Shown here piece after piece: positions 3,422-23,179 of a DNA stretch of 37,501 bases. Below the pieces are notes generated by a model that saw only the letters and a program-made list of their open reading frames with translations, was not told the DNA's origin and made no database searches. The position numbers and the translations under genes were made by a program. The first letter of the stretch is position 1. Each line of letters opens with the position of its first letter. This DNA comes from Psammoneis japonica (Eukaryota), in NCBI GenBank assembly GCA_008632985.1, contig QPGO01000173.1:124001-161501 (forward strand), in the 5' to 3' direction.

Positions 3422-3450
3422 AAGAACTACAGAGGTTTCTTGTAGTTTTT
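3422..3450 (+). promoter_or_regulatory. Putative 3'UTR hairpin containing a METTL16-like TACAGAG motif
   Basis: AAGAAC-TACAGAG-GTTTCTT directly after the metK stop codon (TACAGAGG at 3428-3435). An alternative pairing AACTACA(3425-3431)/TGTAGTT(3441-3447) is also possible. Confidence 0.4.
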
Positions 3451-3679
3451 GAAACAATAAAAAAAGTAAAATGAGGTTGTGTGTGTTTCAAAAAAAAAAA
3501 AGTGATTCTTCTCTCAATAGAGTTTAATAGCGCTGTTTATCGTTGGTGCCGTCTTGCTTTGTTTGTCTCTCATCACATTCGAATGATTTTTACAATGTTC
3601 TCGGGCCGTACGGCAAACGCAAAAGACTTGTTTTGTTCTTTGGTTCAAAAAGACAAAAGTAGCAGTTCTCTGTTCTCTA

Positions 3680-3775
3680 GTGGAGAGAGACGAGCGGGCT
3701 TTTTGTGCATGACCAAGACATGTGGGAGCAGGGGGCTCCGTCTCTGCATCGTGGTAAGGCACTCTAGTAGAGCAC
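3680..3775. repeat. Short dispersed repeat, copy 1 (related to 14590-14718), at the left edge of hypermutated block A
   Basis: tggagagagacgagcgggctttt ... cagggggctccgtctctgcatc ... aaggcactctagtagagca matches, in the same order, tggagagagacagcgcgggctttt ... caggggtctccatctccacatc ... aaggcaaaactctagagca. Confidence 0.5.
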
Positions 3776-6700
3776 GACTCTCTGACACAACACTGCTTGG
3801 ACTGCAGCTCTTTAAAGGTGCAGCACTGCACCACAGTGCAGGAGGTGGGGTGGGTGTTGTTCAAGAAACTGAACATGTCCAAGCCTGAAACAAAGCCAAC
3901 AAGGGGATGATGCCTGCAAGCACCAACACAGATGCCTTGACAGGACAGGCACTTTGTGATCTGTGCACTCCTGCCAGCTTTGCAATGTGCAGGACCAGCT
4001 GACCTCCAATGGAGAGAGCTGGTGGTGGATGTGGAGTTGTTGGCAAAGTCTGGAATGTTGCAACAGACACAAACCTCCTGCTTGATTGGACTGTGGGTGT
4101 TGAGCCTGCCCCCCCCCCCAAAACATCACTTGATGCTGTTGGGCACTTTGAAGCACCTTGCCTTGAACATCAAGATTGAGGGGGGAAGATGCTTGCTTTT
4201 TGGCAGCTTTCCAGTGCAGCTCGTGCCAGTGTGGATGTTTGACTCTGGCACTTTTCAAAGAGCACTTGGTTGGTGGCCTTCCTTTTTGGCAAGCTGCCCA
4301 CCTGCAAAAGTTGGTCCTTGGGATCTGAAGATGCAAAACAACAGTCGCTGCATCCTCAGTTGGACACCTGTGGTCAAAGTCAATGCCTTTGATGACATCA
4401 ACCACGCTGCGCCCTCCCAGGTGGGACCTTTGAAAGGCAGGTGGTTTGTGATGTGCTGTCCAAGTTGGCTGCACTCGTGCACAAGCCCTGGCTCATGTTG
4501 ACAGGGCTTGCAGTCATTGACATGGCTGAACAAGTTCCTTGAGAAGCAAGCACATGGTCTTTTGCTGCAACCCTCTTTGAGGATCTTGGAAAAGCTCACT
4601 CTGGGGCATTCACATTGACGTTGAAGGCATGGACCCTGGCTGGTGCAGCCAGATTTTGTGGGATGTGTTTTGAGCTCAGGGCATTGTGGCTGAGCCCAAC
4701 TTTTGCCAGTTTGCATGTCAGGTTTCTCGTGGCCAACTCTGCATTGAAAGTTGTTGCCCAGCTGCAAACTGCTGTTGTTGGAGCTCTTGCCAAAGAGGCT
4801 GGGAAATGCCTGCCAGTTCACAGGCTGGGCCAACCAATGCCCAGGCTCAAGGAGACAGCATGCCCACACTGAGAATGCCAAACTTTGGAGTGAGTTGAAA
4901 GAGACAAAGCACCTGACATGAAAGGAGGTGGGGGGGGAGCAGAGAGGGGGGCAGAGTTGCCCTCCAGTCACCACAGCCTGAGAGATGTCCTTCACAGTCA
5001 AAAGCTCTCGACCTTTCATGGAGTGTGTCTCCTCATCTGGTTTGCCCCCCTGCCCACTGTGGCCACTTTTTCTCCAACTGTTGAAGTGGGCAGCATCTCA
5101 GCGCACCTTGACAATTCCAAGTCATCACCTTTTGGCAGGACATTGCACCACAGCTGTTTCAGCCCCAGCGCAGGTTGACTTTCATGTGCATCCCCCAGTC
5201 TGAAGTTGTTCAAGCATCTGGAGCAGCAACCTCCCTTGATTTGGCCTTGGGGCCTCAACCTTTCTTGGGAGGCTGTCTCTCACATGAGGATTCTTGCAGG
5301 GGGTGTCAGCTGTCTGCTTCCCAGTGAGGGGGTTGTGGCCTGTCTCAGTGCTGGAGTGTGTGGGACCAATGAGGTCATGTTGCATGGAAAACTGCTTGTC
5401 ATCTGTCATTGGTGGCTGGGGTTGCCCCACTGCAAACAATCCTGTTTTTCCACCAAAACTCATGTTCCACACTTGGGGGGCAGACTGCATTGACACACAA
5501 GTGCAGGTGGGCTCTCTGACAAGATCTTTCTTCCTCCTTGTTTTGGGATTTGCACGGGGACAGCCATGGGCAACTTCAGGGGTGTGCATGCCAGGACCCA
5601 CCTCTGCCACCATTGCTCATGGATTGTGCAACACTTGGGGTGCAAGTTCTTGAGCAAATCTTTGGGAGCTCCTGGTGGTCATGGGACAAAGGCTTGTCTC
5701 TGCCACTTTGGTGCTGCTGGCCAACCCCAGCCTGGCAGTTGGCAGCCAATGGCAGCCCAGCACACCCATTTGTGTCAAGGGACCTCTCCCAAAGTGGTGG
5801 AAGCAACAACAAAGTTGGGGCGCTCCAGCCAAGGTCCAATGAATGGCCAAGAAGCTCCAACAAAAGAAGGTCCAGCCCCAGTTGAAAGCAGAGGGGATGA
5901 AGCAACACAGCTTCAGGTGGTGATTCAGTGGCTCAGCACAGCCAACTTGGAAATGTGATGTGGCTGCTCAACAAAAATGTGACATCACTTTGAAGATGAT
6001 GCCACATGAAAAAAAATGAAAAAAAATGTCATTGGCCCTTGAGCAATGCAGGGCACCCTGCCAAGTGCCAGATGTCCCACTTCATCAAAGTGCACCAGGG
6101 TCACAGTTTTGCTGACACACACTGCACCTGTTCTCTGCATGCTGGTGCAGATGACAGAGAAACAACCACTGCACAATCAGAGTTCTTAGCCAACCACCAC
6201 AAAGTCAGAGCAGTTCTGAGCTGTGCACCATTCTTGTGCAATGCAGCACTGCATCAAGTGTGATGATGGCCTCAGCAAAGCAGGAGAAAGCCAAGCTGAA
6301 GGCTGCTGTCAGTGGAGGAGCTGAGTGCAGCACCATGGCTGTGGGTGCAGCAGGGCAAGAAAGCTTTTGTGATCACCACCATGCTGGAAGAGGGTGCTCC
6401 AATCCAGCTCTCATTTGCCTGCCTTGGGCTTCAATTGAAAATGTGGGGAAAGCAAAGCCATTGAAAAAGCCTCCACCCTGGCCAGCTGCCACCAGAGTTG
6501 TGGCAAGCAATGCAAGCACATTGAGCAGCAGGAAAAACAAGTGGAGAGTCTCTTGTGTGACAGCAACAGCAGCAGTGATGAGAGGAGTGTTGAGAGCATT
6601 GCTGAGGTGTGACGTTGTGTGACATCACATCAGATGTTGTGCATGTGTTTGCACTGCACAATGTTGAGTGCTAAAGTGTGACACAATGTGCCGCTGTTTG

Positions 6701-9330
6701 CACCTGTCACATGCCAGAAGTGAAAAACAAAGCCAGCAAGAAGTGCAAGCAAAGGGTGAGCAAGATGTCAAAGTGAGAGCAAGGGACACACAAAGAGGTG
6801 CAAAACTGACAGCAGCAACAAGGGCATTGAGAAAGCAAGAACATGCAGCTGCACTGCAGTGTGCAACACTGCATTCTTTCATGTTCTCTGTTGTTTGTGC
6901 CAAACATGGGTGATGAAGTGACAAAAGACAAGCACAGTCAGGAGAAGCAGTGATTGCAACCACCACAGCAATGACCAGGAGAGAGCAGCGCCAAGAAGGA
7001 CAATCTTTTCAACGATGAATGGCAAGAAATCAGAGGTCAGCAATGTTGATGAGGGCAGTGTTCCAGCGCAACAGGACAGCAGGGCCAGTGAGAAACACAA
7101 GGTGAAAAAACAGCTGTCCTGCAGCTCTGTTGCAGTGCTCTTGTGACGTGCCATTGCATTGCATCTCATGCACCAGAACAATGACAAAGCAAAGGAGGAG
7201 GATTGCAGTGGTGGCAAGAATGTCACAAATGTCTTTGATGGCCACTCCACAGCATCAGGGCAAAGGGCATTGGATGGCTGTGTTGCTTTCCAGGTGGGTG
7301 CCAAAAGAGACCCTCCTGACTTCAAAACCATGCACAGCATGAAAAATTTCTTCGAAACCCTGGGAGGGTCTGTGCAACATTTGACATGGTGCCTTGAAAG
7401 GGCCACAAAAATGTTGCACAAGCAATCAAGGGTTGTGACCCAGGTGAGTTAAAGGCCAACAAATTGTGCTTTTTGTCTGATTGCACCTGAGATGGTGCAG
7501 GTTTTGGTGTCTTAGTGCAAGTGAAATTTGGCAGTCACCAAGGATGTCACACCACAAAATGTTGCGCAATGTTGTGCTGCAAGACACAGTGGAGTGCTGC
7601 ACAATGTGATGTGCTGGTTGCCAAGCAGTGCAGAGTGCAACACACATGTTGTTGAGCAAGCATCAAAAATGCTCAACACAAAATGTCATGCAATGGAGCA
7701 TGATGTGCTGCAATGAGATGTGTCGCAACTTTGCACCACACATGCCTTTTTTCCTTCTTTTTGTCATGAAGTTTGCTGCTGTTGAAAAAGAGTGCTCCAC
7801 ACTTCAAAGAAACAGCAGGTCACAGGACACAAGAGCTTCGCAAACACCTGGAAATGCAAGGGATCATTGGAGCTCTGCAAGAGAAAGATCAAACTTTGTG
7901 CAAATCACTGGAAAAAATGTGACAAGCACCTTTCACAGCATGACAGCTGTTTTTTTGAAACATTGCTGCCATGTCCTTCACAGCAGGCAACATGTGGCAA
8001 CACCACCGCTGCAATGAGAACATGGGTCATGTGTGTGTGCCAAAAAACAACCACCCAGCCCTCTGTCAACACACACTTTCATGCACTCTGTGCACTCCTC
8101 AATGCAATGAAGCAGCCCTTGTTCCATGAGTCCTTGTGTGAACAGAGGAAAAGATGACACAGAGCACACCGTGCAACAAGGTTGTTGGGGCCATTGTTCC
8201 ATGTGCCACCACACCACCCTTTGTCTGCTGCCCTTTCTGCCCATCCCTGGGGCACCCTGAGGTGTGGCAGAAGAGCAACTGTGAAAATGTTGTGTGGCAT
8301 CACAGTGTGTGGCAACATGCTCTCCAGCCCTGTTGGGCCGCAGAATTCCAGGCGCAAGCTCTGCAGCAAAGTTGCCCAGCAGTGAATTTTGCCAATGACC
8401 GCTGACAGAAAACAGGCAATTTTGTGAACAGAAAAAACTCCTTCATGCTTGAAGCACATCATTTCCGCTTTGCCTTGCTGCACTCTTCAAATGCACCAAA
8501 GACTGCACCCAGCCAGTGTTTTTGATCCCACAAAATCGTGAAGGCGAGCCTTTGGCTTTTGGCAGCTTTGCAAAATGGGGAGCGTGAAACAACTTTGTGG
8601 AAGATTGCAGGTGGAAATGTGCATGTGGCACATTGTCAAAAAACACTGACACCACAGTGCAGCAGTGTGAGGCCTCACCTCCAGAGCTGGCTCGGAGCAC
8701 GTCGGGCATTGAGCGCCGTGCATCTCAACAGTGCACTGCATTGCCTGCTGCCTCAATGTCACACAAAGGCACACCTTTCTCCATGTGTTTGGAGATGCAA
8801 AAGCAGCCTGCAACCATTGTTTGGTGCAGGTGGCTGCATTGCACAGGGGGCACCACACTGCGGGTTTGTGTGGCAAGAAATCCCGCAAAAGCTCCAAGCT
8901 TTGCCAAGCAGGGTTGGGTTGCCCCCTTTTCCAACACAGCAGCGTGCAAGAGCTGAGAGAGCTTGGGTTTTCCTGCTCTTGCAGCACATGTCCAGTTGAA
9001 AAGGGGCAAGCTGCTTTCCAGAGCAAGAGTTGGGGGTTGGAGGAGGAAGAGCACCTTTGCCTCGCCGTGTGGCGCAACAGAGAAGTGCCGTGATGCCGCG
9101 CCATGGTGCACGAGTGGCTCTGGTGTTGCGATTTCAAATGCTGTGCTCCGATTTCAAATGCTGTGCTGTGATCACTGTACAGTGCAGGAAATGCCGGCAC
9201 AGTGCATGACATAAAGCAGAAAGATGAGTGAGGATGAGGCTCAGGCCCGGTTCACCACTTGGTTCAGCAGAAATCAATTGCCCTCAACATCTTGAAGACC
9301 TCATGATGTGGGTTCAGCGATTCACTGACT
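3700..9330. other. Hypermutated block A: TpA- and CpG-depleted, TG/CA-rich decayed sequence (probable transposon or gene relics)
   Basis: No TA found by eye between ~3815 and 6186, and few CGs. ORFs in all six frames lack Tyr and are rich in Cys/His. The origin family is not recognisable. Boundaries are approximate. Confidence 0.85.
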
Positions 9331-9735
9331 GTTTACTTAGGATTCCCTATTTCTGGAAAATGTCTTCTGTCCATTCAATAAATAATGTCAATTGTCTTGC
9401 TCTGATCTGAGACATTTCTGGGCTATATGACATTATTTGTAATCATTTTCAAAACAACATCACATGATCGTCATCGGCAATCCTTTCTTTCCTTTTTTCT
9501 CATCACGGTAATTTAGCGGCCTCCTCGTCTCGTCTCGACTCTACTGTATGGTTTGTTTTGGATCCTCCTTGTCGCCTTATTCTGAAGTCTACGTTGCTCA
9601 GTTCACAGTTTGGAGTTCACACCATTCCCGGATATTTACATGGGCGATAAAAGGAATCTATTACAGTACAAATTCCCTGCTTTTCGCTCTTCGAAACGAC
9701 CTACATTTACGGCTGTTCAGCTGTTCAGCACGAGG

Positions 9736-12141
9736 ATGAAGGTCATCCCTTCACTGTTGCTTGTCGCTGCTGTGTCTGTGTCCCTCCATCTGCCAACGAC
9801 GGTTGCTGTTGCTTCCGAGGAGGATACGACCTTGCAGTTTGTCGGAAGACATGAAACACATCCCTTTCGTTTCCCACTTGGTCCATGTCAAGGGCATTGT
9901 CGAACAAGTAAAGACTGCCACGTAGGACTTTCGTGTCTATCCTACAATGGTGAAGAGCAAGGTGTGCCGGGATGTAAAGTTGTTGGAAACAACGGTTTGG
10001 GACGAAACTATTGTTCATACCCTGTACGAAACACTAGTTCCATAGAGAAGCCTCCACCGCTTCTAAAGTCATTGAAGAATGTGGAAGCTAAGCCAATGCA
10101 TCCACTAACTGTCGTGAAATCATCAGAGGCCCGTCCTCTTGGTCTTTGCCAGGGGCGCTGTTCCGGTCATGAAGACTGTAGATTTGGCTTGAACTGTTTC
10201 AGGAGACGAGGAGGCCAGCCAGTACCAGCCTGTAGTGGAAACGATAAAACGTCGCGCAGTTACTGTTTCAAGCCCCTTCAGGGTGTTCTAGTGAGACGTG
10301 GAGTCAACGGTGTACCCGAATCGGCTTTCTCACTGAGAAAGTGCCAAGGACACTGCGCTGGAGATGCGTTCTGCGGCCTGGGACTAATTTGTTTCCGGCG
10401 AATCGGAAAACAAGCTGTTCCTGATTGTCGTGGCAACGGTATACTTGGTGTCAATTATTGCACCGTTCCCACTGTTTCAAACACCTTGGTTCGTGTTGTG
10501 GAAAAAAGTCAAGTCCGCCGAGGAGGACAAGCGCTGCTTGCAGAGTGTGAAGGAGAATGCCTCCTGGACAGTCATTGCAAAAAGGGACTTCGATGTTTCA
10601 AACGTCAATCCAGTGAAAGCGTTCATGGTTGTACTGGCCAAGGTATTTTAGGTGGTTCCTATTGTATCAAGGATAAAAGAACAGGCACAGAGAAAGAAAA
10701 TAACAGCAAGAAGCCAGAAGATAAAAAAGACAATGTTGATTCAATCAGTCATCTCGACAATGCTGGCCGATGCACCGTTGCCGCACCTTGCTCAAAGTGC
10801 CAAGGGGATTGCGCCGGCAGCAATGATAAATGCAAGCGAGGATTAATTTGTTTTTCCAGGACAACAGATCACAGGATCCCGGGGTGTGCAGCCCGTGGTG
10901 TGTCCGGTATTGATTATTGCTCTGTTCCACCAAAGGACAAGCCGGTAACATATGTGCCTGGCAAGCTCTCCCACGTAGAAGAAGGCTTATTGCTCTCCAG
11001 TGGTCTGACGGCCCGTCTCATTGCCACGAAGCATCAACCAGTCAAGCTGGAGCACAATGGAAAACTGTCCAAAATAAGATTTCACCCAGCTGCAGATGGT
11101 GCCGCCGTATTTGCGAATAAACAGACGGGTGGTTGGAAGTACGTATCCAATGCGGAAAGCAGAATAACAGGAGGTGTGGGTGCAATTGAATTCGATGCTC
11201 AAGGTAAAGTCATTGGCTATGAGAGGCTGCTGTCTGGAAGCCAGAGAAATTGCGGTGGAGGCGCCACATTCTGGTCTACTTGGCTTTCCTGTGAAGAAAT
11301 AGAAGGCGGACAGATTTGGGAGGTAGACCCATTCGGAAAGCACCCACCAAGAAAGACTATCATCGGAGTCAAGGGTGGAGACACGTATGAGTCTGCTGCT
11401 TACGATAATCGGAAGCCTGAAAGACCAATCTTTTACGTCACCACTGACAATAAACGCGGGCCTGTTCTCAAGTTCACACCGGACAGTGAGGTGACTTCAA
11501 AAGCATTGAAAAGCAACGATTTTTCGCGGATTTTGCACTCAAATGAAACCGGCACTGCAAGAACCGAGTTCCTTGTACTTCGACCTAACAAGAGGAAAGC
11601 TAGCAAAGAAGGTACCTTTTCCTGGACCGAGGATTTGATAGCAGCTCGCAAGAACGCGTTTCAGGAATATTCCCAATGTGAAGGCATCGATGTTAGAAAT
11701 GGCATTGTCTACTTTACCTGCAAAAGGAATGCTCATTTATTCATTTTGGATACCGACCGAGGCACCTACACACGAGAATCAACAAAACAAGGAGCCTTCA
11801 ATGGAAGCCCCGATCAAGTAGCGAGAGTTCTCGGGGGGAATGAAAGTGATGCAATCCTTTATTTTTGCGAAGAAACGGCACCAAATGGTCAGGACTGTGG
11901 AGTGCACGGTCGAGACGGCAAGGGAAATTATTTCACTATTCTCGAAAATTTCGGTCACAGACCTGAGCTGGCTGGGGAAGTAACTGGTTTGGCGTTTTCT
12001 CCCGACAACATGCGAATGTATGTTTCCTACCAGAAACCAGGATACATTTTTGAAGTCAAGCGACTCGATGGCTATCCCTTTGGAGGTCAGCGATTGGACA
12101 TCAAGCACGGCACCACTGTGCTGCGGGAAATTAAAATTTGA
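9736..12141 (+). CDS. phoX: Secreted PhoX-family alkaline phosphatase with five N-terminal frustulin-like Cys-rich repeats
   Basis: Signal peptide MKVIPSLLLVAAVSVSL. Five repeats of C(Q/E)GxC..C..GLxCF.R....VP.C.G....YC. C-terminal PhoX motifs DGAAVF, YVSNAE, NCGGG.T.W.TWLSCEE, YESAA, EGID and EVTGLAFSPD..RMYVS.Q. Confidence 0.85.
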   Translation: MKVIPSLLLVAAVSVSLHLPTTVAVASEEDTTLQFVGRHETHPFRFPLGPCQGHCRTSKDCHVGLSCLSYNGEEQGVPGCKVVGNNGLGRNYCSYPVRNTSSIEKPPPLLKSLKNVEAKPMHPLTVVKSSEARPLGLCQGRCSGHEDCRFGLNCFRRRGGQPVPACSGNDKTSRSYCFKPLQGVLVRRGVNGVPESAFSLRKCQGHCAGDAFCGLGLICFRRIGKQAVPDCRGNGILGVNYCTVPTVSNTLVRVVEKSQVRRGGQALLAECEGECLLDSHCKKGLRCFKRQSSESVHGCTGQGILGGSYCIKDKRTGTEKENNSKKPEDKKDNVDSISHLDNAGRCTVAAPCSKCQGDCAGSNDKCKRGLICFSRTTDHRIPGCAARGVSGIDYCSVPPKDKPVTYVPGKLSHVEEGLLLSSGLTARLIATKHQPVKLEHNGKLSKIRFHPAADGAAVFANKQTGGWKYVSNAESRITGGVGAIEFDAQGKVIGYERLLSGSQRNCGGGATFWSTWLSCEEIEGGQIWEVDPFGKHPPRKTIIGVKGGDTYESAAYDNRKPERPIFYVTTDNKRGPVLKFTPDSEVTSKALKSNDFSRILHSNETGTARTEFLVLRPNKRKASKEGTFSWTEDLIAARKNAFQEYSQCEGIDVRNGIVYFTCKRNAHLFILDTDRGTYTRESTKQGAFNGSPDQVARVLGGNESDAILYFCEETAPNGQDCGVHGRDGKGNYFTILENFGHRPELAGEVTGLAFSPDNMRMYVSYQKPGYIFEVKRLDGYPFGGQRLDIKHGTTVLREIKI

Positions 12142-12639
12142 AAGCGCAACTTTGACAACTTGTTTGCTCGAGGGGTGTACCGCTTTTGTATCACGTTGGT
12201 TTCTGCATGCTTCCTTATCAGTTTCATTCTTCATGTAGTGCTTGTTGATTATTTGGCGGCAAGCATCTTTTGATGTTCTTAGACCATGCGTTTATTGAGC
12301 ATGATCGCTTCCTCTTGGCTGCGGGTTAACCAGTCCTCTTTTTCAACTTGCTAACCTCTACTACTGGCACTTCTTCCAAAGATACACAACTCAAACAACA
12401 GGCAAAAGACCAAACTGGCATAGTCTGACAATGTCTACGTTGTACCTTGAGCCCATGATTGTACCGTATTTTAGACACTTTTAAATTTTATCGGCGACGA
12501 GCTGCTGCCTCTAGAAACGCTTACCGCGTCCTGGTTTTTCCTTTCAATCCACGACCACATGGATGGGAGCAGAACACCAGTAACACATGTCATGCACATT
12601 GTCGCACGCAGAGTTGTGGGGCGATTGACACACTACACA

Positions 12640-15600
12640 ACTGAAAGAACCCTTCACCATTGTCTTGACAAAGCATTTCAATCAGCGTCTAGAAGGGCCA
12701 CAGCTTGCATTTCCACCGCAACTGCCCCTGGCCAATGTCTTTTGAAGTCAGTCTCCTCCACTTGAACTGACTCCATTGGCCTGGTGAACCATCTGGCAAG
12801 ATGGGTGTGGTTGGATGGGTTGTTGTGGAGGCAAGTGAGTTCTTCCTCGATCTGACCATCTGCAATGTTGTTGACAGTCAGTCTTGATCCAGAAGCCTCC
12901 AATCTTGGCCACTCACATGCAGCGCCACCACATGTCCCATGCCAAATGATTTTGCAGTTGTTGTGCCAAGCTGGAAAGCCAGCACAAACTGGTGTTCCAA
13001 AGCTCAACAAATTCACAGCAAGCCTGGGCTGCCATGCTGCTGCACACTCTGCTCTTGCAAAGAAGCTGCGTGCAAGAGAACTCTCGCCTGAGAATTCCTG
13101 CACCCTCAAAAACTGCTTGTGCCTGTGGATGGCAATTGGAAGTGGGTGCAGGTGTGTCCTGTTCATCATGCCATGATTGAAGTGACTGCACACACCCCCT
13201 GCAGCACAGGAAGGAATGAGCCACCAGTTGGTTGGCAAGCCATCATTTCAAAGTCCAGGCTTCTTTTGGTCCAAGAGGGCTGTGCAGCACAAGACAAGAT
13301 CAATGCCATCTTTGGATTCTCTGCAATGCAGACAAACTGGGCTTTTGAGTTCCTTGCAACAATGGAGGTTTTTGTCAGCTGGGGCAAATCCTGTGCTCTG
13401 CCGTGGCTCCGCCAGACTCTTCCAAAGGTGCAGCATTGGCTTGCTGCCTGATCTAGAGCTTCCCAATTGACTGGCAAGCATTGCAGCAGAGACTTCACTT
13501 TTGTGCCAGTGCCTTTGGCCAGTGGTCTGCACAAATGATTGGGGTGGACTGCTGGTGCCAGGAGGATGTGAGAGTTTTGCCACCAAGCTTTGCTGGCCAC
13601 ATGATGTCATTGACTGCAGCTCAAAGGGTTGCATTGTTGCCTTTCCTGGCTGTGCTGCAAGAGCATCTCCCAACAAGCTTTTGCAAGGAGATCCATTTTG
13701 GTGCTGGAACAACTTGTGAAAGGGGATGTGCCTGTCTCTCTGTGACCCTCAGCCCCTTGGCTGGTGTGCCACAAGCACTGCAGGAAGCTCCCAGACAACA
13801 GAACAAATTGCACAGACAGGTCAGATCACAGTGCTTGCAAGTTTTGGATCACTGTGCCAAATTGCAGAACAAGCATGCTCCAAGACTGAGGTCGCAACAG
13901 TTGCAGCCCAGAGTTGCCTTTCCTCATCTCATCTCAGCAAGTGCAGCAACAACCTCTGTTGGAAAGGTGGCTGTTGGAACATCAGGGTCAGAGGCAGTTT
14001 TCACAGGACAGAGACAGACAATGTTGCGGTGTAAGATGCACTGACAATTGTGTGGACAATCTGACAAGGTTGCACTCACAACTCAGGCTGAGTTGTGGGT
14101 CTTGTGCCAACTTTTTAGCTTCTGCACCCAGCTGACATGGCAACAGCAGTCAGCATCATTGGGGTGGTTGCAAGCCACACAGTGAGTTCAGGGTCAGCGA
14201 GGCTGTAAACGTGTGCCACTTGACAAGCCATGAAACTCCAACAGTGACTGGCTGTGTGCACCAAAAATGCCCCCAAGCTTGCCCCAATGTGCAGTGGAAG
14301 GTTTTTCATGCAGCAGGCCAGAGTCTGGCTCACCCCTCTGTGTCTGTGGAAGTTGTGCCTTTGCCAGGTGACAAAATTTTGCCTGAAGCCACCGCTGCAT
14401 TGTTGCTGCAAGGGGTTGTCCATGGCAGACACATGCTGACAATGCAGGCATCATCCCATCATTGTGTGTTGATGTGTGCTGCAAAACAAAAAGGGTTGGT
14501 GGCTCATGTGGGTTGAGGGTGCACTTGTACTCATTTTTGGTTGCTTGAACACATTTTTTGTTGCTCATGTGGGCCTGGCAGCTCTCTGCCTGGAGAGAGA
14601 CAGCGCGGGCTTTTTTGAAGGAAAGATCAAGAAAGAGACTTTTTTGGGGAGACGTTGGCCTGGATCAGGGGTCTCCATCTCCACATCTCTGGAGTGACAA
14701 GGCAAAACTCTAGAGCAGCTGTTGATTGTGGGCCCTCGCTCCAGGCCCTGGCTCTGTGAAGGATGGGTTCAGATGCATCAACCCTCACTTCTTTGCTGCC
14801 TTCAGCAAGACAAGCACAGCCTCTTTGGAGCAACAGAGGAAGCCAAGTCTAAGTTGCATGGAAGAGCAAAGAAAACAAACATGCAATGTCAGAAAAACTG
14901 GAAGTGGGCATGGGAAAGTTGGTTGCAGCAGCAAAGAATGAAGACAGGAGAAAAAGCACTGGAGGCAATGCAAGAGATCAAGGTGACTGAGCAAAGCACC
15001 CTGAAAACTTTGCAAGACTCGAGTCTTTGCCCAAGATGCAAAGCTCAACATGGTCAATTGGAACATGGAAGATCTCAAAAATCACCCAAGGAAGTCTTGG
15101 CAAGCTCAAATGACACACACAAGCAAGAGCTTGCAATCCAGAGCGCACCCCACCGGGGCAGTTTTGAGCACAGAGACAGTTCTCGCAACACCCGAAACAG
15201 CTTGGACCTCATGAAAACTGTGGCAAATGTTTGCCTGCCAATGTGATGAGAAGCAAATGGCAAGGGAGCAGCAACAAGAAAGAGGAGGTTCAGAGAACAA
15301 GAGCTCCAATGTGTCCAAGCAGCGGCTCCTGGTCAGCTGAGATTTGGCCCCCCAGCAACGCTCCCAGGCAATTGCAGGTCATGCTCAATGTCATGTGTGT
15401 CAACAGCAAAGAGGACAAAGAAGAACAGAAGCATTGCCCATGTGCTGAAAATCAACTCCTGGAAAGCCAAATGATCTGATGGGGGTTTGAAGGTCCGCAC
15501 ATTTTGGTGCTGACGGGAGAGGGAGATGTGTGATTTGTTGCTTGTGTGTGCATCAGTGTTCGAGTTCCAACACAGGCACTGCTGCATGTTGACAATCATT

Positions 15601-15840
15601 TGTGCATGTGAGGATGGATGGTGTCAGCAAAGGGAGGAGTCCTCCACTCTGTTGCTTTGGCATTTGAGTCAATTCATCAAGCAGATTGACAGTGCTGTCA
15701 AACCCCCACTTCTTTGAGGCAACATTGAGACTTGAAGATTGTGCAGCGTGTTTCGTTGTATGATGAAAAGATTCTTCATCGGAGCAAAGAATCACCATCC
15801 TTGTCATTCTCTCCTGCAAAAAGACTGCCAAGGTCAGACT
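12640..15840. other. Hypermutated block B: TpA- and CpG-depleted decayed sequence
   Basis: Same signature as block A: nearly Tyr-free ORFs and rare residual TA (e.g. ctag at ~13453 and ~14710). It contains protein-like relic segments on the minus strand. Boundaries are approximate. Confidence 0.85.
14590..14718. repeat. Short dispersed repeat, copy 2 (related to 3680-3775)
   Basis: Three colinear matching segments shared with 3680-3775. Confidence 0.5.
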
Positions 15841-16075
15841 GCTGCGCTAGAGAATAGATTGCACCTCGAACCTCGAACCTCGACCGGTGATGTGTGATTT
15901 GCGCGAACGCGCGAGAGCACGATCGCGCGACACCGAGTCGGGGCAATATGAGCGCCAGCGGCGCGCTGGAAGATTTCAAATTTTGCGATTTCCATTTCGC
16001 CAAAGCCAAAGCGATCGTGTTTTCTTTCATTGCTGTTGTTGCAACCTGCAAAGAAATAATACCGACGGTGGTGAA

Positions 16076-17116
16076 ATGCGAAAGGTAGCAAAACAAGCCT
16101 TGATCTATAGTGTGACTGCCGTTTGCTTGGGAGGATATATTCTTCGTTTTCAATCAAGTCAAACGAACGCGTTGAATCAATCGATAATACTACAGAACAA
16201 GAATGTCACGAATGTCACGTCAACATTCGTTCCGTTTCCGCACAGATTTCTCCCGTATGGAATAGATGCTGCTTGTCGTTGGTCCACAACAACCGCAAGC
16301 AAGCAATATAGAGCAATGGACGATTTTTACTGCAACAGTTACAGACATCTCGACACGATACAAGTAGCAGCGTTAAACGAGGGCATTTGCTTGCCGACCG
16401 ACAAGGTATTTAGGTCGAGGCTTCATCTTTTTTCCTCCCAAGAAGCCATCGACTGCCTCTCATCAAACAAAGATATTCGAGTAGCGGTATCTGGAGACAG
16501 CTACAACATTCAACTTTATATCGGACTGATTGACATTCTGTTGGAGAATCCTAGCAATGAAGAAATAATGAATGCTTCTCATAGACGAGAGGTTCTGAAA
16601 CTATCCATGCGGGCCCTTCACGATCATTGGCAGCAAAACAAGTCATATCCCGCAGTGGGCTATGTTTGCAGCGCTGAATGCTACGGACAGGGGGGATCGT
16701 TATTTCATCTCGAGTGCTCGAACTGCATCAATTCCATTTTACAAAACAAGACCAGCTTCGCGGCAATAGTGGGTGCTGGCATTCACATGTTAGGGTCGCT
16801 TAAAAGCAACATTACGAGATTTTCTCACGAAATCAAAGCGTTCCTTGACAGCGCGCCAAACGTTGTATTCAACTCTATGCCGTGTTATCAAAAGCAAAAA
16901 GTACCCGAAGAATACCGGCCTGATGTTGGCAGGAACGGACAAGCTTACCATCAAACTCTACCGCTGGTCAAGAATCGCCCATTTCTCGACTTTTATCAGT
17001 TAACAAGAGCTTGCTACATGGACAACTGCTCAACGGACGGGGGACATAGGGCTAGGTATGTGAATCGGTGGAAAGCACAGCTACTACTCAATACGTTATG
17101 CCAAGTCACGTGTTAG
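16076..17116 (+). CDS. Type II membrane protein with SGNH/PC-esterase-like GDS and DxxH motifs (putative acyl esterase or O-acyltransferase)
   Basis: N-terminal hydrophobic anchor (ALIYSVTAVCLGGYIL), several N-x-S/T sequons, VAVSGDS and a C-terminal TDGGH; normal TA/CG content. Start placed at MRKVAK within ORF 15887..17116. Confidence 0.6.
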   Translation: MRKVAKQALIYSVTAVCLGGYILRFQSSQTNALNQSIILQNKNVTNVTSTFVPFPHRFLPYGIDAACRWSTTTASKQYRAMDDFYCNSYRHLDTIQVAALNEGICLPTDKVFRSRLHLFSSQEAIDCLSSNKDIRVAVSGDSYNIQLYIGLIDILLENPSNEEIMNASHRREVLKLSMRALHDHWQQNKSYPAVGYVCSAECYGQGGSLFHLECSNCINSILQNKTSFAAIVGAGIHMLGSLKSNITRFSHEIKAFLDSAPNVVFNSMPCYQKQKVPEEYRPDVGRNGQAYHQTLPLVKNRPFLDFYQLTRACYMDNCSTDGGHRARYVNRWKAQLLLNTLCQVTC

Positions 17117-17371
17117 AACGGATTGATTAATGTTCGACATCTAAAACAACGAAAGCATTCGTGGTGCAAACACATCACTGCAATGCTAAAAAGTGTTCGC
17201 GGTAACCTTGTTTTAGTATGTCTCGGGCCAGTGATAGTTCACCGCGATCGTTATTTTCCCATCGCTCAATCGAAACAGAGCTCGTTGTCATCATAATATA
17301 GTGTGAGTTCATGTTGTATGTACTGTACAAAATTAACTGGCTTTGCCTCCTACCGTACTCTAGCTACCGTA

Positions 17372-18450
17372 GAGTCCACTTGAACTCCAATCACGCCGTC
17401 TCCGTCCGCACTGCCGGCGGGTCCACATGCCGTTTCGGTGTGTCGAAGCGTCATTTTCTCGGAGGCAACATTAGAACTTAAGCGTGCATCAAAGCAGGGG
17501 ATGAGGAAGAGCAAGGCCAAATCAGCCAAATTGAATGACGTGCAACAGCTTCCACTTTCCTTGATTACAGTCTTCATTGTGGCACTTCTAACGTGTTGTC
17601 CATTGCATGGTGATGTTCTCCATCTGCCAACTTGGACAGAGACACAATGGCCACACAAAAGGACAATCCTGACAAGACAGATGCCAAACAACCAAAATCC
17701 CAGTTTTCTGGATAGATTGGCAAAGAACCAGGGAGACAAAAGGCACAAAGCTGGCAATCATGATTGCCATGATGAAGGACAAATTGAGGCTGGCATCATG
17801 TGAAGAATCCAACAAGTCCATGTTGGCCACAAGGAGAAGAATCATGGCCCATGCCCAACAAGGAAATTTCAACCAAAGCTGATTCTTTGCCAAAGCCAAG
17901 TGAGCCCATCAAGCGCATCTCTAGACAGTGGGGTGCAGAGAATGACAAAAATGTCAATGAAGCTCAGCGCACTTGCCAACTGGCACTGAGTTTCAAAAGA
18001 AAAATGTTTGTTGTGTCTCCTCCAAGATGCTCTGTTTGAATTGTGCATGTGAGCAGCAGGAGGCACATGAAATGAGAGGCAACAACAAAGCACGCAGTTC
18101 TCAACCCCACACACTTCTTGCCTCTGTCATCTCACCATGGCAGCACAAAGATTGGCACACAAGGAGGCAACAAAAGACAAAGAAAAAATGTGTGGAGCCA
18201 AGCACAAGCTCATCTGGCAAGTTGTTTGACAAGAAACTGTCCCCAAAGTGGCACAAACCTCTTTCTTTCTCAGTGAAGACAACAATTTGTCACTGTTGGC
18301 TCCATCGCCAGCAGTGTCGGCTGCACTCTGATCTCCTTTTCAGCTTGAGCAAGCCAGCCACCAAGATTGCCTGCTCTCACAAGAGAGCATCTTAAAAGTC
18401 ACATCATTGGTTTGCCAGGTGTCACACCCATCAGTGGGAAAATGTTAAAA
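17372..18450 (-). pseudogene. Hypermutated partial copy 1 of the MFS transporter gene (3' part)
   Basis: Translation fragments FANLSRKLGFW, MILLLVANMDLLDSS and DGDGVIGVQV match 23180..23812. It has indels, and the intron donor is destroyed (cttacctc -> cttgcctc). Confidence 0.92.
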
Positions 18451-18484
18451 CCAACTGTGGCACAATGCTGAAAATTTCCTCAGC

Positions 18485-18566
18485 GGGCAGGAGACACGGG
18501 GCTGGATGTGTGAATTGGTGGGAGGTGCAGCTGCTTCTCAACATGTTGTGCCAAGTCATGTGTTAA
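18485..18566 (+). pseudogene. Hypermutated remnant of the 3' end of the SGNH-like gene
   Basis: ctgcttctcaacatgttgtgccaagtcatgtgttaa (18531-18566) aligns to ctactactcaatacgttatgccaagtcacgtgttag (17081-17116). Confidence 0.85.
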
Positions 18567-18839
18567 AAAAAGATCAATCACCACTCAATGTTCACAAAAC
18601 AACAAAAGTTTTTGACTCATGGTGCAAATCTTCGTGCCACTGCAGCGCTCATGGCTGCCTTGCTTCATCACACCTTGGGCCAGCAACAATTCTGCACCCC
18701 ATCCACCATGGTCATTGTTCCCTCCCACTCAATCAATCAGAGCTTGTTGTTGTCTTTCCAGAAGTGAGAGTCAATGCTGCTGGTGCGGCGTGCACAAAAT
18801 TGAGACACTGCCTCCTGCTGCGCACTCTCTGGCAGCTTG

Positions 18840-19770
18840 CACACTTGAGCTCCAGTCACGCTGTCTCTGCCCATGCTGCCAGCAGGTCCATGTTCCACAT
18901 TGATGTGTCAAAGAGAGCCTTTTCTTTCTTGGCTGCAATGTCAGAGCTTGAGTGGCATGAAAGCAGGGGACATGGAAAAGCAACACCAAATTGGCCATTT
19001 GGAATGGCATGCAATGGCTTGCAATTTCCTTGACCACAGTCTTCCTTGATGTGCACTTCAAATGTGCTGTCCACAACATGGTGTCATTCTCCATGAACCA
19101 AGTTTGAGAGAGGAACAATGTCCCAAATGCACAAAAGAGGACGGACCCAACAAGATGCCACAAAAACCCAAATCCAGTTTTCTGGGTGGGTTGGCAAAAA
19201 AGCAGGGAAACAAAAAGGCTCAAAATTCTGAACAACAGATGAAGCTGGCAACCGTGGTTGCCATGATGAAAGGAAGACACAACTGGGGCTGTGTTGCATG
19301 AAAAATCCAGTGTGTCCATGTCTGCCACCAAGAGGAGAATCATTGGACCCATGCCCAAATTTGCAGCCATGGCTGCTGCTGCACCAACAAGCACCCAGGC
19401 AGCAGTGCAGCTGCAGCAGTGGGCTGCAACAAAGCTCAGCACACTTGCCAATTGATGACAAATTTTAAAAGCATGCTTTTCCAAGCTGCTTGAGCTGCAA
19501 AACATCAATGGCAGGCATGCGTTGAAAAGCAATGCCAACACAAGTTGACTTGTCACACAGACTTGCCTTGTGGTCACTGTGGCAATGCAAAGGTGGGCAC
19601 AAAAGGAGGCAACAAGGAAGAGCACACACTGAGCATGGAGCACAAGCTTTGTTTGCCAGTTGTTGATGAAAAACTGTTTCTGTGAAGAGCGGACCTGTTT
19701 CTTTCTTGACCAAGGTTGGCAATTTCTTGCTGTTGGCTCTGCCAGCATGGGCAGCATTGTTTTCTTCTGA
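18840..19770 (-). pseudogene. Hypermutated partial copy 2 of the MFS transporter gene
   Basis: FLVASFCAHLCIATVTT vs intact FLVTSFYANLYIATVTT; LGMGPMILLLVADMDTLDFSCN vs LGMGQMILLLVANMDMLDSSYD. The intron sequence is retained. Confidence 0.92.
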
Positions 19771-21358
19771 TCAGCTCCAGGTGGCACAAAAATGTGCAAT
19801 CCATCAAATGTCACATTTTGCCTGCTTGCAAGCTCCCTTCAATTTAAGTTTTTTCCAAAACCAATCTCTCTGTGCAGCAATGCCAGGAAAATGTTTTTGG
19901 CATCATGGCGTTTTGTGTTTTTTTTTTTGAGTTTTTGGTTGTTGAAAGAGGAGTTTTTGAGCCAGCCACTTTGGAGAATTTGTCAACTTCCATGTGAGAA
20001 AAAAGCTTTGCATGGGACTTTTTTCATTGTTTTGGGAGCTTGCAATTGTTTTCTGCCTTCACTCTTTTTACATCACATGTGTGTTGAACTTTTGCGTGCA
20101 CCAGAGTGCTCATTTCATCTCAGAGTGCAAAAAGAAAAGCCCACCGCCCCTGTTGCTGCACTCTTTTTTTGCTTCACTGCTGCCACCCACATGACACTGT
20201 TCTGTGTGAAAGAAAAAGAAATGTTCCTCAGCCAGCTGCCAATGCAAACAGGCACCAATCCCAACAAAAACCACTCTTTTTGATGAGAAAAGTGCCCCTG
20301 TCCAACAGTGCTGCCGCTGCTTGCCCCCCCCCCCCCGTCTCATGCTGCAGCTGCAAAACAGCCACCTGAACCCCACCGGGCCACACCTCTGACAACTCTC
20401 CACTGCAACTTTTTCTCCCATGACAAAGCCACCGCGCCACTCCTTGCAGTGTGGCGACCCCTTTGCTGATGTTTGATCTGCAAGCTTTTGAGCATCATTT
20501 TGTGTGACAACATTCATCACAGAAGCAAGAAAAGCATCTTGAACCATGTCCAAAACAAACACCCTTTCTTGTGCCAACACTCCAGAGCAACAGGGTGTTG
20601 CATTCATGCGCGCATTGACAATGCCCGAAACTGCTGCTCCAATTGCTGCCGCTTGTGGTTTGAAGTTGCTTGTGAGTGCAGAAGCTTTTGTGGGGCAGTG
20701 CACAAGCAACCAAAACAGTGGCCAGCACCAAGCTGAGGACATGAAAGCTTTTGTTCATTTGCTGGTGATGGCAATTTCCAGCTCCCCCCAACAAATCAGA
20801 TGTGAACCCCCCAAAGAGAAGTGCTCTCCAAAGATGTGTGAAGAGGCACTGAATCTGCCCAAAACTGCTGTGTTGGCCACCACGTGAAATTCTTGGGAAA
20901 GAACATTAGAGCAGGAAATTTTTTTCTTGAGGTTTGTGTTGCATTTCGGCAATTGTTGGCCAGCCACAGTGGTTTCGCCGTGTGTGGCCAAGAAGACGAC
21001 ACACCATTTTGATCTCTGCTGATTTGGGTGGGAGCAAGAAACACGAGTTGGCAAATCTTGGTTGCTCTGTTGTTTGCCAGAGGCCAAAAACTCTAAATGG
21101 CTTTTGTCATTTGGCACTGGTTGTTTCAACTTTTTCACTGATTCTAGCTGTGCCATCGTGGCAAACAGATGATCATTCGTTCTGGGCATGACAGTGTCGA
21201 GAGATGCCGCCGTAACGGCTGAACAACGGTCGGCATCTTCACACTGCTTCCCAGCTGTTTTAGCTTCATTCATTTTTTCGTGTCACTCCCCGCTCTAGCC
21301 TCGCTAACCTTTAGGAGTACGGTATCACGTTGCTCCTCAGAAAGTCAAAATACACAAC

Positions 21359-22615
21359 ATGTCGTTATCGGGTGATAACGGATTAGAAAGAGATTTGCTC
21401 TTGGTCGGCATCGGAAACGTGGAACAAGTCGCATGGTCGTCGCATGTTCCGCCTTTGCCAGAACCACGGAGCGACCACGCGGCGGTCGCAATAAGCAATC
21501 AAAAATACATGATTATTGGTGGCAATGACGGAAACAAACGTTTATCAAGAGTATTAGTTTGCAATCTTGAGTCTAAAGAATGGGAGCAATTGTCGTCATG
21601 GCCTAATCTCAATCGTGCCCGTAGTCATCATGCGGCAGTTTTTACACAACACAAAGTTTATGTATTTGGGGGACTGGATGGAGGTACTCTTGATTCCATC
21701 GAATGCTTGGATTTATCTCTCAATGAACCAAAATGGCAAATACTCAAAGCAAAATTGACTTGCACACGATACGGATGCACAGCGGCTGCAGTGGGAGAAC
21801 GATATGTGTACATCTTTGGTGGATCGGGCAAAACGTCGGTAGACATTTTAGACACAGCGACGGACGAAATTCTGCAAGGTCCACCCATGACTACCGCACG
21901 ATGGGGAGGTGCAGCGGAAGCTGTTGGGACTAAATTATATGTTGTTGGTGGGGACAGTGGGTATGGTGAAGAAAATTTGAATACCATCGAGTGTCTAGAC
22001 ACTGACCTGAAGAGATGGAAATTATGTCAAGCAAAACTGTCAACACCCAAATGGCACATGCGAGTTCAAAAGTGGGGTGACTCTATCATAATTGTCGGTG
22101 GCGAAGACAATGACGGCGATAAGTTGTCTTCGGTGGAAGTATTTGATACGAATCGAGATGTATGTATTTCGCTGCCCGATTTGTCTATGGCAAGATCTAG
22201 TCTTGCCACTGTAGTGCTGGGCAACAAGGTGTATGCCATTGGTGGCCATGACGGTACAAAAGAAGTGGCTTCAGTGGAATGCCTTGTCCTACCAAGAGCG
22301 GATCCAAAAGCTCGCCATTTTGCGGTTGTGCAGGCAAGAATCGCACTCGAGTCCCAATTCCATGACTTGGACGATTCATCTTCTGCAGAGTATGAAAATT
22401 TACTTGGCAATCAAGAGGAACAAATTTACAAATTGGAAATGGAGTTAGACAAATTATCGTGGTATCCGTTTGGAAAAGCGGATCAAAAGCAACATATCCA
22501 GAAGTCCTTGGAGAAACTTAAGTTGAAGGCTGCATTGCAGAATCTACAGCTTTTGCAAGAGCAAATTTCTGCCGAAATAAAAAAGTCGACGGAAACTGAT
22601 TCTTCAGACAGTTAA
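21359..22615 (+). CDS. Kelch-repeat (six-bladed beta-propeller) protein with a C-terminal coiled coil
   Basis: Six repeats of the type R..HAAV....YxFGG.....S.E..D....W in an uninterrupted 418-aa ORF. Confidence 0.9.
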   Translation: MSLSGDNGLERDLLLVGIGNVEQVAWSSHVPPLPEPRSDHAAVAISNQKYMIIGGNDGNKRLSRVLVCNLESKEWEQLSSWPNLNRARSHHAAVFTQHKVYVFGGLDGGTLDSIECLDLSLNEPKWQILKAKLTCTRYGCTAAAVGERYVYIFGGSGKTSVDILDTATDEILQGPPMTTARWGGAAEAVGTKLYVVGGDSGYGEENLNTIECLDTDLKRWKLCQAKLSTPKWHMRVQKWGDSIIIVGGEDNDGDKLSSVEVFDTNRDVCISLPDLSMARSSLATVVLGNKVYAIGGHDGTKEVASVECLVLPRADPKARHFAVVQARIALESQFHDLDDSSSAEYENLLGNQEEQIYKLEMELDKLSWYPFGKADQKQHIQKSLEKLKLKAALQNLQLLQEQISAEIKKSTETDSSDS

Positions 22616-22738
22616 CTTGATGCCGAGATAGGAGGTGCCGTGTAGGTAGCTTGCGGTCGTTCATGATTTAATCCTACAAGGATCCAACGATAGACCTACT
22701 CTAGAGTATATGATGAGCACCGGTCGTTTCGGTCGATT

Positions 22739-22902
22739 TCAAACTCTACCGCTGGTTCAGAATCGCCAATTTCTCGACTTCTATCAGTTTACAAGAGCTT
22801 GCTACATGGACAACAACTGCTCAATAGACGGGGGGCATAGGGCTAGTGAATCGGTGGAAAGCACAGCTACTCCTTAACACGTTATGCCAAGTCACGTGTT
22901 AG
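22739..22902 (+). pseudogene. Non-hypermutated 3' fragment of the SGNH-like gene (third copy)
   Basis: Closely matches 16951-17116, with a 5-nt deletion (gctaggtatgtgaa -> gctagtgaa) and a 3-nt insertion. TA and CG are retained. Confidence 0.9.
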
Positions 22903-23179
22903 AAATTTGGAAAAGATTGAGTTTTGTTCGGATTGAAAACCACGCAAGGGTTTGATTCGTGGCGCAAATCTTCACATCACTGCAACGCTCAAAGTCGTCA
23001 TGGTAAAACATTGATTTATGATATCTCTGGTCTGTGAAAAACCCTGCATCCCGTCAACCGCGATCGTTGTCTTCCCCTCGCTCAAATCCAACAGACCAAC
23101 AGAGCTCGTTGTCTCCTTAGTATGAATTCATGTCGCGTGTGTAGTATGTACAAAATTAACTGAAGTTGCGTACTATATA

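Follow-up and report, generated by a model that had tools for sequence, protein, structure and literature searches.

Three sharply bounded blocks of a diatom contig are nearly free of TpA, depleted in CpG and, in part, derived from decayed copies of a host gene

In a window of 37,501 nt of DNA from the diatom Psammoneis japonica (contig QPGO01000173.1 of assembly GCA_008632985.1, positions 124,001-161,501 of the forward strand), three blocks of several kilobases, here called A, B and C, have almost no TpA and have lost most of their CpG (Table 1). Overall, the data indicate that the blocks are probably silent, non-coding DNA, including at least two dead copies of a host gene, and that this DNA has been rewritten in place by a confined and context-specific transition hypermutation.

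Expected dinucleotide counts in the blocks were derived from the frequencies outside them (0.0414 TA and 0.0548 CG per position); the window as a whole contains 1067 TA and 1500 CG. TpA occupies 20 of the 11,936 positions of the blocks, a frequency of 0.0017. The longest TA-free gap measures 2374 nt in block A, between TA sites at 3813 and 6187, as compared to 280 nt outside the blocks. One dinucleotide profile is common to A, B and C, with observed/expected ratios (o/e) of 0.01-0.04 for TA and 0.14-0.19 for CG. CA and TG reach 1.68-1.91 in all three blocks, symmetrically on the two strands, while GC stands at 1.29-1.39 and AT at 0.71-0.74. Outside the blocks, the ratios are 0.58 for TA, 1.01 for CG and 1.21-1.22 for CA and TG. 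The G+C content is 49.8% in the blocks and about 47% outside. An initial annotation of this DNA had described three sharply bounded domains nearly devoid of TpA, without any TA between about 3815 and 6186. The domains are borne out by the counts, and the TA-free interval proved exact. The sizes given for them (5.6, 3.2 and 3.9 kb) were slightly too large, the measured values being 5.4, 3.1 and 3.5 kb. TpA was rightly taken as the signature of the domains, which is nonetheless incomplete, since CpG is co-depleted throughout the blocks.

Block edges were placed by a two-state hidden Markov model (HMM) and by maximum-likelihood steps, separately for TA and for CG. The HMM returned depleted segments at 3776-9062, 12635-15746 and 17593-21144. 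Maximum-likelihood steps were located at 3814, 9178, 12691, 17371 and 21094 for TA and at 3776, 9063, 12718, 15845, 17484 and 21157 for CG. Taken with the fates of individual sites described below, the change points show that the edges are steps of about 200 nt or less. The dinucleotide scan and the change-point placement thus gave a stepwise and not a gradual TpA profile, as had been anticipated. At the right margins of A (8339-9177) and C (20315-21093), TA is absent, yet about one third to one half of the CG is retained; in block A, CpG depletion is strong at 3776-8338 and partial at 8339-9149. Two readings fit these margins, either a later entry into the domain or a weaker methylation. If the margins had entered late, the roughly six-fold difference between the two rates estimated below would leave no TA by the time half of the CG has disappeared. 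At 9129-9167, precisely on the right edge of block A, a 20-nt sequence is perfectly duplicated in tandem (2.0 copies), and TA returns 10 nt further on, at 9178; nothing comparable was seen at the left edge of this block. When the edges of the three blocks were compared, no shared motif emerged, only chance 11-mers.

Block C contains DNA whose source can be identified. Two segments, c1 and c2, are decayed copies, arranged in tandem, of an intact gene, c3, located to the right of the block. The three copies have the same orientation, and the Kelch-repeat gene plus 1.2 kb of erased DNA separate c2 from c3. The two overlapping open reading frames (ORFs) of c3 imply a short intron or a frameshift near 23800. 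Using the c2 ORF as a query, tblastn aligned it to 24137-23184 with 28% identity over 351 amino acids (E 3e-20). The ancestral frame of c2 remains open for 347 amino acids (18771-19814) because TAA and TAG cannot form in erased DNA. At the level of DNA, c1 and c2 are 67-71% identical to the parent, as compared to 28-39% at the protein level, and c1 has no single continuous frame. Judged from these alignments, both copies decay like neutral pseudogenes. The initial annotation had derived block C from neighbouring genes; this holds for c1 and c2, which align to c3, and no origin was detected for the right part of the block.

The erased copies show directly that the process has acted on pseudogenes of the host. 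The spared part of c1 differs from c3 by 57 transitions and 50 transversions over 613 aligned nt, and the erased part by 163 transitions and 50 transversions over 813 aligned nt. Relative to its spared part, the erased part of c1 has therefore gained transitions only. The corresponding numbers for c2 are 294 transitions and 164 transversions over 1414 aligned nt. Of the ancestral TA sites, 27 of 31 in c1 and 42 of 59 in c2 have become CA or TG, so that mutation is near saturation, as had been proposed. For ancestral CG, the same outcome was observed at 27/35 sites in c1 and 50/66 sites in c2. In addition, one edge of the erased domain falls inside c1. There, TA conversions begin at 17409, whereas CG is kept up to 17592 and converted from 17621 on, which defines a gradient zone at about 17371-17621. 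The sequence is consistent with a graded transition over about 200 nt, the faster process, that on TpA, being the first to appear. Because this edge lies within the duplicated c1, and because c3 is intact, duplication or homology neither triggers the process nor defines its domain.

To describe the substitutions in their sequence context, c3 was used as a proxy for the ancestor of c1 and c2, and both strands were pooled. A was replaced by G at 79 of 175 sites preceded by T (0.45), as compared to 158 of 995 sites preceded by another base (0.14-0.17; 63/383 after A, 46/328 after C and 49/284 after G). The 3′ neighbour also matters. The A>G rate was 0.61 in TAC, 0.55 in TAT, 0.31 in TAG and 0.19 in TAA, and at sites lacking the 5′ T, 102/438 A were replaced before a pyrimidine against 55/556 before a purine (p = 1.4e-8). 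C was replaced by T at 83 of 194 sites before G and at 113 of 765 sites elsewhere. Two processes with different rates are superimposed in these data, A>G at TpA and C>T at CpG, a distinction that the initial annotation had not drawn.

The dinucleotides that survive in the blocks obey the same context. YTAR is a poor context for A>G on both strands and is thus predicted to be resistant; in agreement with this, 15 of the 20 surviving TA, those of A and B included, are found in YTAR, as compared to 128/1018 outside the blocks (p = 5e-10). Residual CG is CGY in 80 of 113 cases, an excess that is expected if CAY>CGY keeps making CG. Double changes between TG and CA were observed at 25/144 sites in contexts favouring the path CAY>CGY>TGY and at 8/173 sites in unfavourable ones (p = 3e-4).

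Forward simulations were run from the window's normal sequence with A>G (60-fold faster after T, 4-fold faster before a pyrimidine) and C>T at CpG. These two rules matched all 16 dinucleotide ratios with a root mean square (rms) of 0.06 and gave a G+C content of 50.4%, as compared to 49.8% observed. Simulations deprived of the 3′-pyrimidine rule failed on AT and GC (rms 0.14-0.16). From the counts in the blocks (20 TA and 113 CG versus 2727 CA+TG), we estimate that, at steady state, TA would be lost about 140 times and CG about 24 times faster than single transitions recreate each of them. The latter value falls in the usual range for methylated DNA. TG and CA are intermixed at short range. 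A runs test on the strand of conversion gave 27 runs versus 26.6 expected (n=54) and 41 versus 47.0 (n=92), that is, a random order. Since the strand is random at successive sites, the end state was reached by many independent hits. Two candidate processes were rejected, processive editing of a single strand, for which the runs test was negative, and biased gene conversion, since AA/TT is not depleted (o/e 1.2-1.4) and G+C is up by only about 3 points.

The process is confined. The blocks occupy the space between transcription units, ending 293-550 nt past a stop codon and 130-560 nt ahead of the next start. At the codon 3-1 junctions of the four flanking genes, 142 CG were counted versus 165 expected (o/e 0.86) and 71 TA versus 144.5 (0.49), which corresponds to background. 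Because these junctions are synonymous and background-like, selection on the proteins is not what sets the block edges. The ordinary TA and CG content of the flanking genes and the spatial confinement of the process, both claimed by the initial annotation, are thus supported by the codon junctions and, for the latter, by edges of about 200 nt at most. In the normal DNA shared by c1 and c3 (16951-17589 versus 22739-23400), A>G was observed at 13/54 sites after a 5′ T and at 15/266 sites after other bases. No net loss of TA was found there, with 29 TA in each copy, and the background TA ratio is 0.58 as stated above. A weak genome-wide form of the TpA bias is possible.

We propose that two rules would account for the blocks. 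According to the first, A would change to G about 10-60 times faster after T and about 4 times faster before a pyrimidine, which on either strand would turn TpA into TpG or CpA. According to the second, C would change to T at CpG. Both rules would act repeatedly, independently at each site and on both strands, until a steady state is reached in which TpA makes up about 0.2% of steps, the CpG ratio is about 0.15, CpA and TpG are doubled, GpC is up and ApT is down. The domain would stop within about 200 nt of the adjoining transcription units. The first rule most likely corresponds to enzymatic deamination of DNA adenine at T-A-Y, by an ADAT2/TadA-like or another deaminase, and the second most likely to deamination of methylated CpG. 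Silent chromatin would be the most likely mark of the domains, in line with the chromatin-targeted mechanism suggested by the initial annotation. A second public run, X2 (its record reads 'DNA?'), reaches 10 of the 30 bins of the region, in genes only and not in the blocks, and weighs neither for nor against silence. The closest precedent is the TpA hypermutation of integrated viral DNA described in the chlorarachniophyte Bigelowiella natans (Mettrop et al., bioRxiv 10.64898/2026.01.13.699255; statements on this preprint refer to its main text).

Several points weigh against this explanation. The copy c3 stands in for the ancestor, and part of the differences arose on its own lineage. The stretch was found in one sequencing sample only, probably the assembly's own source. 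For this organism, the deaminase, the 5-methylcytosine and the targeting by chromatin are all inferred. A>G is raised also at A-pyrimidine sites other than TpA (0.21-0.27), unlike the TpA-only process of B. natans, which would reflect either a differing specificity or another process contributing over long times. The targets in B. natans are viral, whereas block C derives from the host and no origin could be detected for A, for B or for the right part of C. Finally, random strand outcomes carry no signature of a processive enzyme and do not by themselves indicate a deaminase.

The loss of TpA could be a by-product of CpG methylation, if T:G mismatches were repaired in patches by an error-prone polymerase causing A>G after T. 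A parallel is found in antibody genes, where Pol eta works at WA motifs during the second phase of somatic hypermutation. In line with such an origin, both signatures occupy the same domains, and the TpA-free zone outreaches the core of full CpG depletion, the excess being about 200 nt where the edge falls in c1 and about 800 nt at the right of A and C. Site-independent outcomes on two strands would also fit many separate repair events, and papers on non-canonical mismatch repair of deaminated 5-methylcytosine exist. However, a WA preference would raise A>G in AA, and the rate after A is no higher than after C or G. TpA is more fully erased than CpG, as the loss rates estimated above indicate. 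In the mutation-accumulation lines of B. natans, moreover, A>G or T>C accounts for 230 of the 231 mutations in the two hypermutable regions, each of these at TpA, and C>T is essentially lacking (10.64898/2026.01.13.699255); there, the TpA process runs without visible CpG mutation. We therefore consider an origin in repair patches unlikely.

The target might also be the thymine of TpA, modified in silenced DNA, for instance to 5-hydroxymethyluracil (5hmU), and then miscoding as C or being misrepaired. T>C at TpA on one strand is indistinguishable from A>G on the other, and dinoflagellate 5hmU prefers TpA. In these organisms, the modified base has been linked to the silencing of transposable elements in the part of PMC11572971 considered here. 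The flanking preference decides neither way, a 3′ pyrimidine for A being a 5′ purine for T. Evidence for such a base in diatoms was neither found nor looked for here, and we regard a thymine target as distinctly improbable.

Natural selection against TA and CG words, read by a nuclease, an RNA decay factor or a DNA-binding protein in blocks that would be functional, has very little to recommend it. The copies c1 and c2 decay as expected of neutral pseudogenes, the excess of substitutions is limited to transitions, the surviving TA obey a mutational context rule, and a model of pure mutation gives all 16 dinucleotide ratios.

That the blocks are an artefact or foreign DNA, arising from a chimeric assembly, a contaminant or miscalled modified bases, is equally hard to credit, even considering the single source sample mentioned above. 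Contigs of a public run, X1, were placed on 30 bins covering 3000-22900, and all 30 bins were covered. The contig 3460-5132 spans the left edge of block A with 0 differences, and contigs 17147-17776, 17749-19928 and 21016-22900 span both edges of block C as well as the edge inside c1. As independently built contigs bridge these four edges, the blocks are no chimera. The word depth in this run is 27-80 in the blocks and 47-65 in the genes. Together with the derivation of block C from a neighbouring host gene, these data agree with the view of the initial annotation that a contaminant or a chimera was unlikely for block C. Strand-specific misreading would presumably give all-TG or all-CA stretches, whereas the two are intermixed. 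Two bins of the erased blocks exceed the depth range, 13624-14287 in block B (517) and 8312-8975 in block A (141). Because of this raised depth, the blocks must contain short dispersed repeats at these places. Several loose contig ends and joints were seen at 13994-14243.

Among the 186 placed contigs of run X1, 92 are merely 90-95% alike to the window. Their differences from it comprise 193 transition and 93 transversion places, and adjacent TG/CA swaps were seen at 5709-5710 and 7845-7846. These divergent contigs could represent either haplotypes or erased paralogues, and in the former case the process may still be active.

Classical fungal-type repeat-induced point mutation (RIP) through the RID-like DNMT4 carried by many diatoms can be dismissed as exceedingly improbable: block C is duplicated DNA and, in the part of PMC9998398 considered, diatom DNMT4 groups with fungal RID, its function being unknown, but RIP is C>T mostly at CpA and creates TpA (PMC2621366, as far as considered here), whereas the blocks have lost TpA and owe half of their changes to A>G, and neither c3 nor the first ~450-640 nt of c1 was affected. 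The RID-like DNMT4 of diatoms bears at most on the CpG half of the signature.

Several routes were followed to trace where A, B and the right part of C come from. A Pfam scan of the six-frame read-through of all three blocks (18 translations) returned 0 families, and in particular no viral or transposon domain. A comparison of the window with itself in purine-pyrimidine (RY) space, on both strands with 150-nt windows at >=80%, gave nine matches, all of which are relations among c1, c2 and c3. No long terminal repeats, terminal inverted repeats or tandem arrays were found in the blocks. A word-indexed protein search with the ORF 4255-5019 (minus strand) gave 172 candidates, none at E <= 0.01. 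At the right of block C, the 388-codon frame of a possible decayed gene was compared to 1.84 billion representatives with phmmer; the 1 match (E 3e-4, 11 short stretches) was judged to be low-complexity. An RY period-3 signal of 4.5-4.6 was observed at 20401-21000. The RY period-3 and codon models gave modest peaks elsewhere (for example 6250-7300 on the plus strand) and mis-assigned the known gene at 23180-24456; they were not relied on. Long ORFs were also rejected as a sign of function in the blocks, since we estimate that, with TGA as the sole stop, about 20 frames of at least 150 codons are expected by chance. The only long frame that stands out is the 347-codon frame of c2, which was inherited from the parent gene. 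As these blocks illustrate, homology searches miss DNA that has been erased.

Table 1. Positions, within the window, of the blocks, the gene copies and the neighbouring genes
Feature	Position	Strand	Description
Block A	3814-9177		5364 nt; TA 4 vs 222 expected; CG 48 vs 294; Poisson log10P -88 (TA), -70 (CG)
Block B	12691-15758		3068 nt; TA 7 vs 127 expected; CG 28 vs 168; Poisson log10P -44 (TA), -40 (CG)
Block C	17590-21093		3504 nt; TA 9 vs 145 expected; CG 37 vs 192; Poisson log10P -49 (TA), -42 (CG)
Copy c1	16951-18460	-	blastn 16951-18299 vs 22739-24104: 71.4% over 1436 nt; normal to ~17400, erased from ~17600
Copy c2, wholly erased	18440-19900	-	blastn 18510-19768 vs 22846-24136: 66.9% over 1321 nt
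Copy c3, intact source gene	22739-24456	-	ORFs 23797-24456 and 23180-23812; membrane-protein-like; no Pfam; ordinary TA/CG
Possible decayed gene	20110-21273	-	388-codon frame with a single TGA; begins in normal DNA, enters block C
S-adenosylmethionine synthetase (metK)	2204-3421	+	three Pfam domains (E 3e-33 to 7e-64); lies 393 nt to the left of block A
PhoX-like gene, intact	9610-12141	+	Pfam PhoX E 6e-13; between blocks A and B
Intact ORF of 409 aa without a Pfam match	15887-17116	+	TA o/e 0.6-0.9, CG about 1.0-1.2; between blocks B and C
Kelch-repeat gene, intact	21359-22615	+	Pfam Kelch_1 E 1e-42; 266 nt right of block C
SET/Rubisco-LSMT-type protein gene	27409-29160		Pfam; starts with a signal peptide, then an 'NAF' motif

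The initial annotation had placed four intact genes next to the blocks. Pfam supports this for metK, the PhoX-like gene and the Kelch-repeat gene, while the ORF it had called SGNH-like (15887-17116) is without a Pfam match. By homology, the flanking genes point to a diatom. Among the named best relatives of the synthetase are those of Astrosyne radiata (89%), a Nitzschia (87%) and Achnanthes kuwaitensis (86%); others reach up to 94%. Relatives of the PhoX-like protein were found in Fragilaria crotonensis, a member of the Bacillariaceae and Seminavis robusta, and a metagenome scan with this protein gave 194 pattern matches, of which 0 were confirmed. A contig of run X2 skips 106 nt (11855-11962) with CT..AC ends, which read GT..AG on the complementary, minus strand. 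At this place, an ORF is present on the minus strand (11779-12234), and the skip points to splicing of a minus-strand transcript that overlaps the PhoX-like ORF at its 3′ end. The homology between c1 and c3 starts inside the last ~55 codons of ORF 15887-17116 (16951-17116 versus 22739-22905), and the counterpart of this C-terminal end in c3 is non-coding DNA downstream of the Kelch-repeat gene. Either the C-terminus of the ORF was captured from the duplicated segment, or the reverse happened.

Further to the right, a phosphomethylpyrimidine kinase domain is split over two ORFs and followed by a thiamine-phosphate synthase ORF at 25188-27257, which is probably one ThiD-ThiE gene with introns. 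The signal peptide and 'NAF' start of the SET protein are taken by us to be a diatom plastid-targeting signal. In contrast to the blocks, the zone 31500-32000 is unusually rich in TA (o/e 1.39) and CG (1.30), and direct and inverted repeats of about 50-80 nt with 79-85% identity are found around 31850-31984 (region 31708-32005). A 108-nt match (82%) links the SET gene region at 28779-28884 to the window end at 37405-37501.

Several known systems share features with the blocks. Fungal RIP, as in Neurospora and others, likewise uses near-saturating and sharply bounded transitions, kills duplicated or selfish DNA and leaves a dinucleotide signature. In contrast to the blocks, where TpA is erased at a G+C content near 50%, it makes C>T changes only, mostly at CpA, enriches TpA and lowers G+C. 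Moreover, RIP strikes all repeat copies, whereas c3 and part of c1 are spared here and the edge is independent of the duplication. The decay of CpG in the methylated DNA of vertebrates, plants and transposons also turns CpG into TpG and CpA, with a steady-state ratio around 0.15-0.2, but it covers one of the two signatures and leaves TpA alone. Antibody somatic hypermutation, which combines AID with error-prone repair, resembles the present case by local C>T changes plus A:T mutations at A preceded by T or A. It differs in being somatic, promoter-linked and unsaturated, and its WA motif includes AA, which is not raised here.

Editing by deaminases, such as APOBEC on retroelements and ADAR on double-stranded RNA, shares the use of base deamination as a weapon. 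APOBEC- and ADAR-type editing acts on RNA or replication intermediates and in runs on one strand, whereas in the blocks the chromosomal DNA itself was altered in place, at individual sites of either strand. The adenosine deaminases ADAR and TadA/ADAT have a preference for 5′ U or T, like the first of our two rules. The substrate loop of TadA/ADAT, U-A-C-G, resembles T-A-Y, and ADAT2-like enzymes are reported to deaminate both A and C in DNA. ADAT2/3 act on DNA in Trypanosoma and amphioxus, as cited in 10.64898/2026.01.13.699255.

In the literature searched, targeted A>G change of chromosomal DNA is reported once, in the 2026 preprint on B. natans (10.64898/2026.01.13.699255); searches on TpA/CpG depletion, diatoms, RIP and A-to-G hypermutation retrieved nothing else that fits. 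In B. natans, the hypermutable regions are integrated giant-virus and virophage DNA and mutate at about 6e-7 per site per generation. As in the blocks, TpA becomes TpG or CpA by A>G or T>C on either strand, in kilobase clusters, while the neighbouring genome is normal. The preprint defines clusters in kilobase windows by a Rho of at most 0.43 for TpA and of at least 1.52 for CpA+TpG, and the blocks, at 3.1-5.4 kb and with the TA and CA/TG ratios given above, lie well within this definition. Saturated TpA frequencies are also alike, about 0.0018 in the low-TpA coding subgroup of B. natans and 0.0017 here. The large hypermutable region of B. natans is single-copy and transcriptionally silent, and the target DNA of the present window would be silent as well, which would agree with a marking of the domains by chromatin. 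The preprint proposes an ADAT2-like DNA adenine deaminase with a role in defence. It also finds host-type domains among TpA-depleted genes, so a viral or foreign origin may not be a defining feature of this type of hypermutation.

The two cases differ in other respects. B. natans belongs to the Rhizaria, and the present organism, a diatom, to the Stramenopiles. Here, CpG is erased too, a 3′ pyrimidine is preferred, and the process appears to leak to sites other than TpA. The only traceable substrate in the window is a duplicate of a host gene and not a virus. Edges are resolved here to about 200 nt, while a mutation rate was measured in B. natans only. The main text of the preprint (10.64898/2026.01.13.699255) has 0 mentions of CpG, diatoms or trinucleotide context. 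Relative to that text, the co-erasure of CpG, the 3′-pyrimidine context, the cycling CAY>CGY>TGY, the nucleosome-scale edges and the host pseudogene substrate are new.

The same erasure of TpA is thus now seen in a diatom, a distant and ecologically dominant lineage. Tentatively, and at some distance from the data, one may imagine that diatoms hold a chromatin-guided DNA-editing defence that would erase both self-complementary pyrimidine-purine steps in silenced DNA, be it of the host or of an invader. An adenine deaminase acting on T-A-Y and cytosine deamination at CpG would be combined, maybe in one ADAT2-like enzyme, and, with the TpA half found in a chlorarachniophyte as well as in a diatom, the system would be old and widespread in the Stramenopiles-Alveolates-Rhizaria (SAR) supergroup. 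If so, editing throughout SAR would shape the intergenic DNA of major marine phytoplankton, and the defence would offer a natural adenine editor of double-stranded DNA. If the hypermutation described here proves general, it would change the way in which old insertions, pseudogenes and intergenic DNA are identified in the genomes of diatoms, as well as the modelling of local mutation rates, and would point to a natural adenine-editing DNA enzyme. As compared to the accumulating mutations of B. natans, the present window shows the end state, together with an internal control, an intact parent gene near two erased copies of itself.

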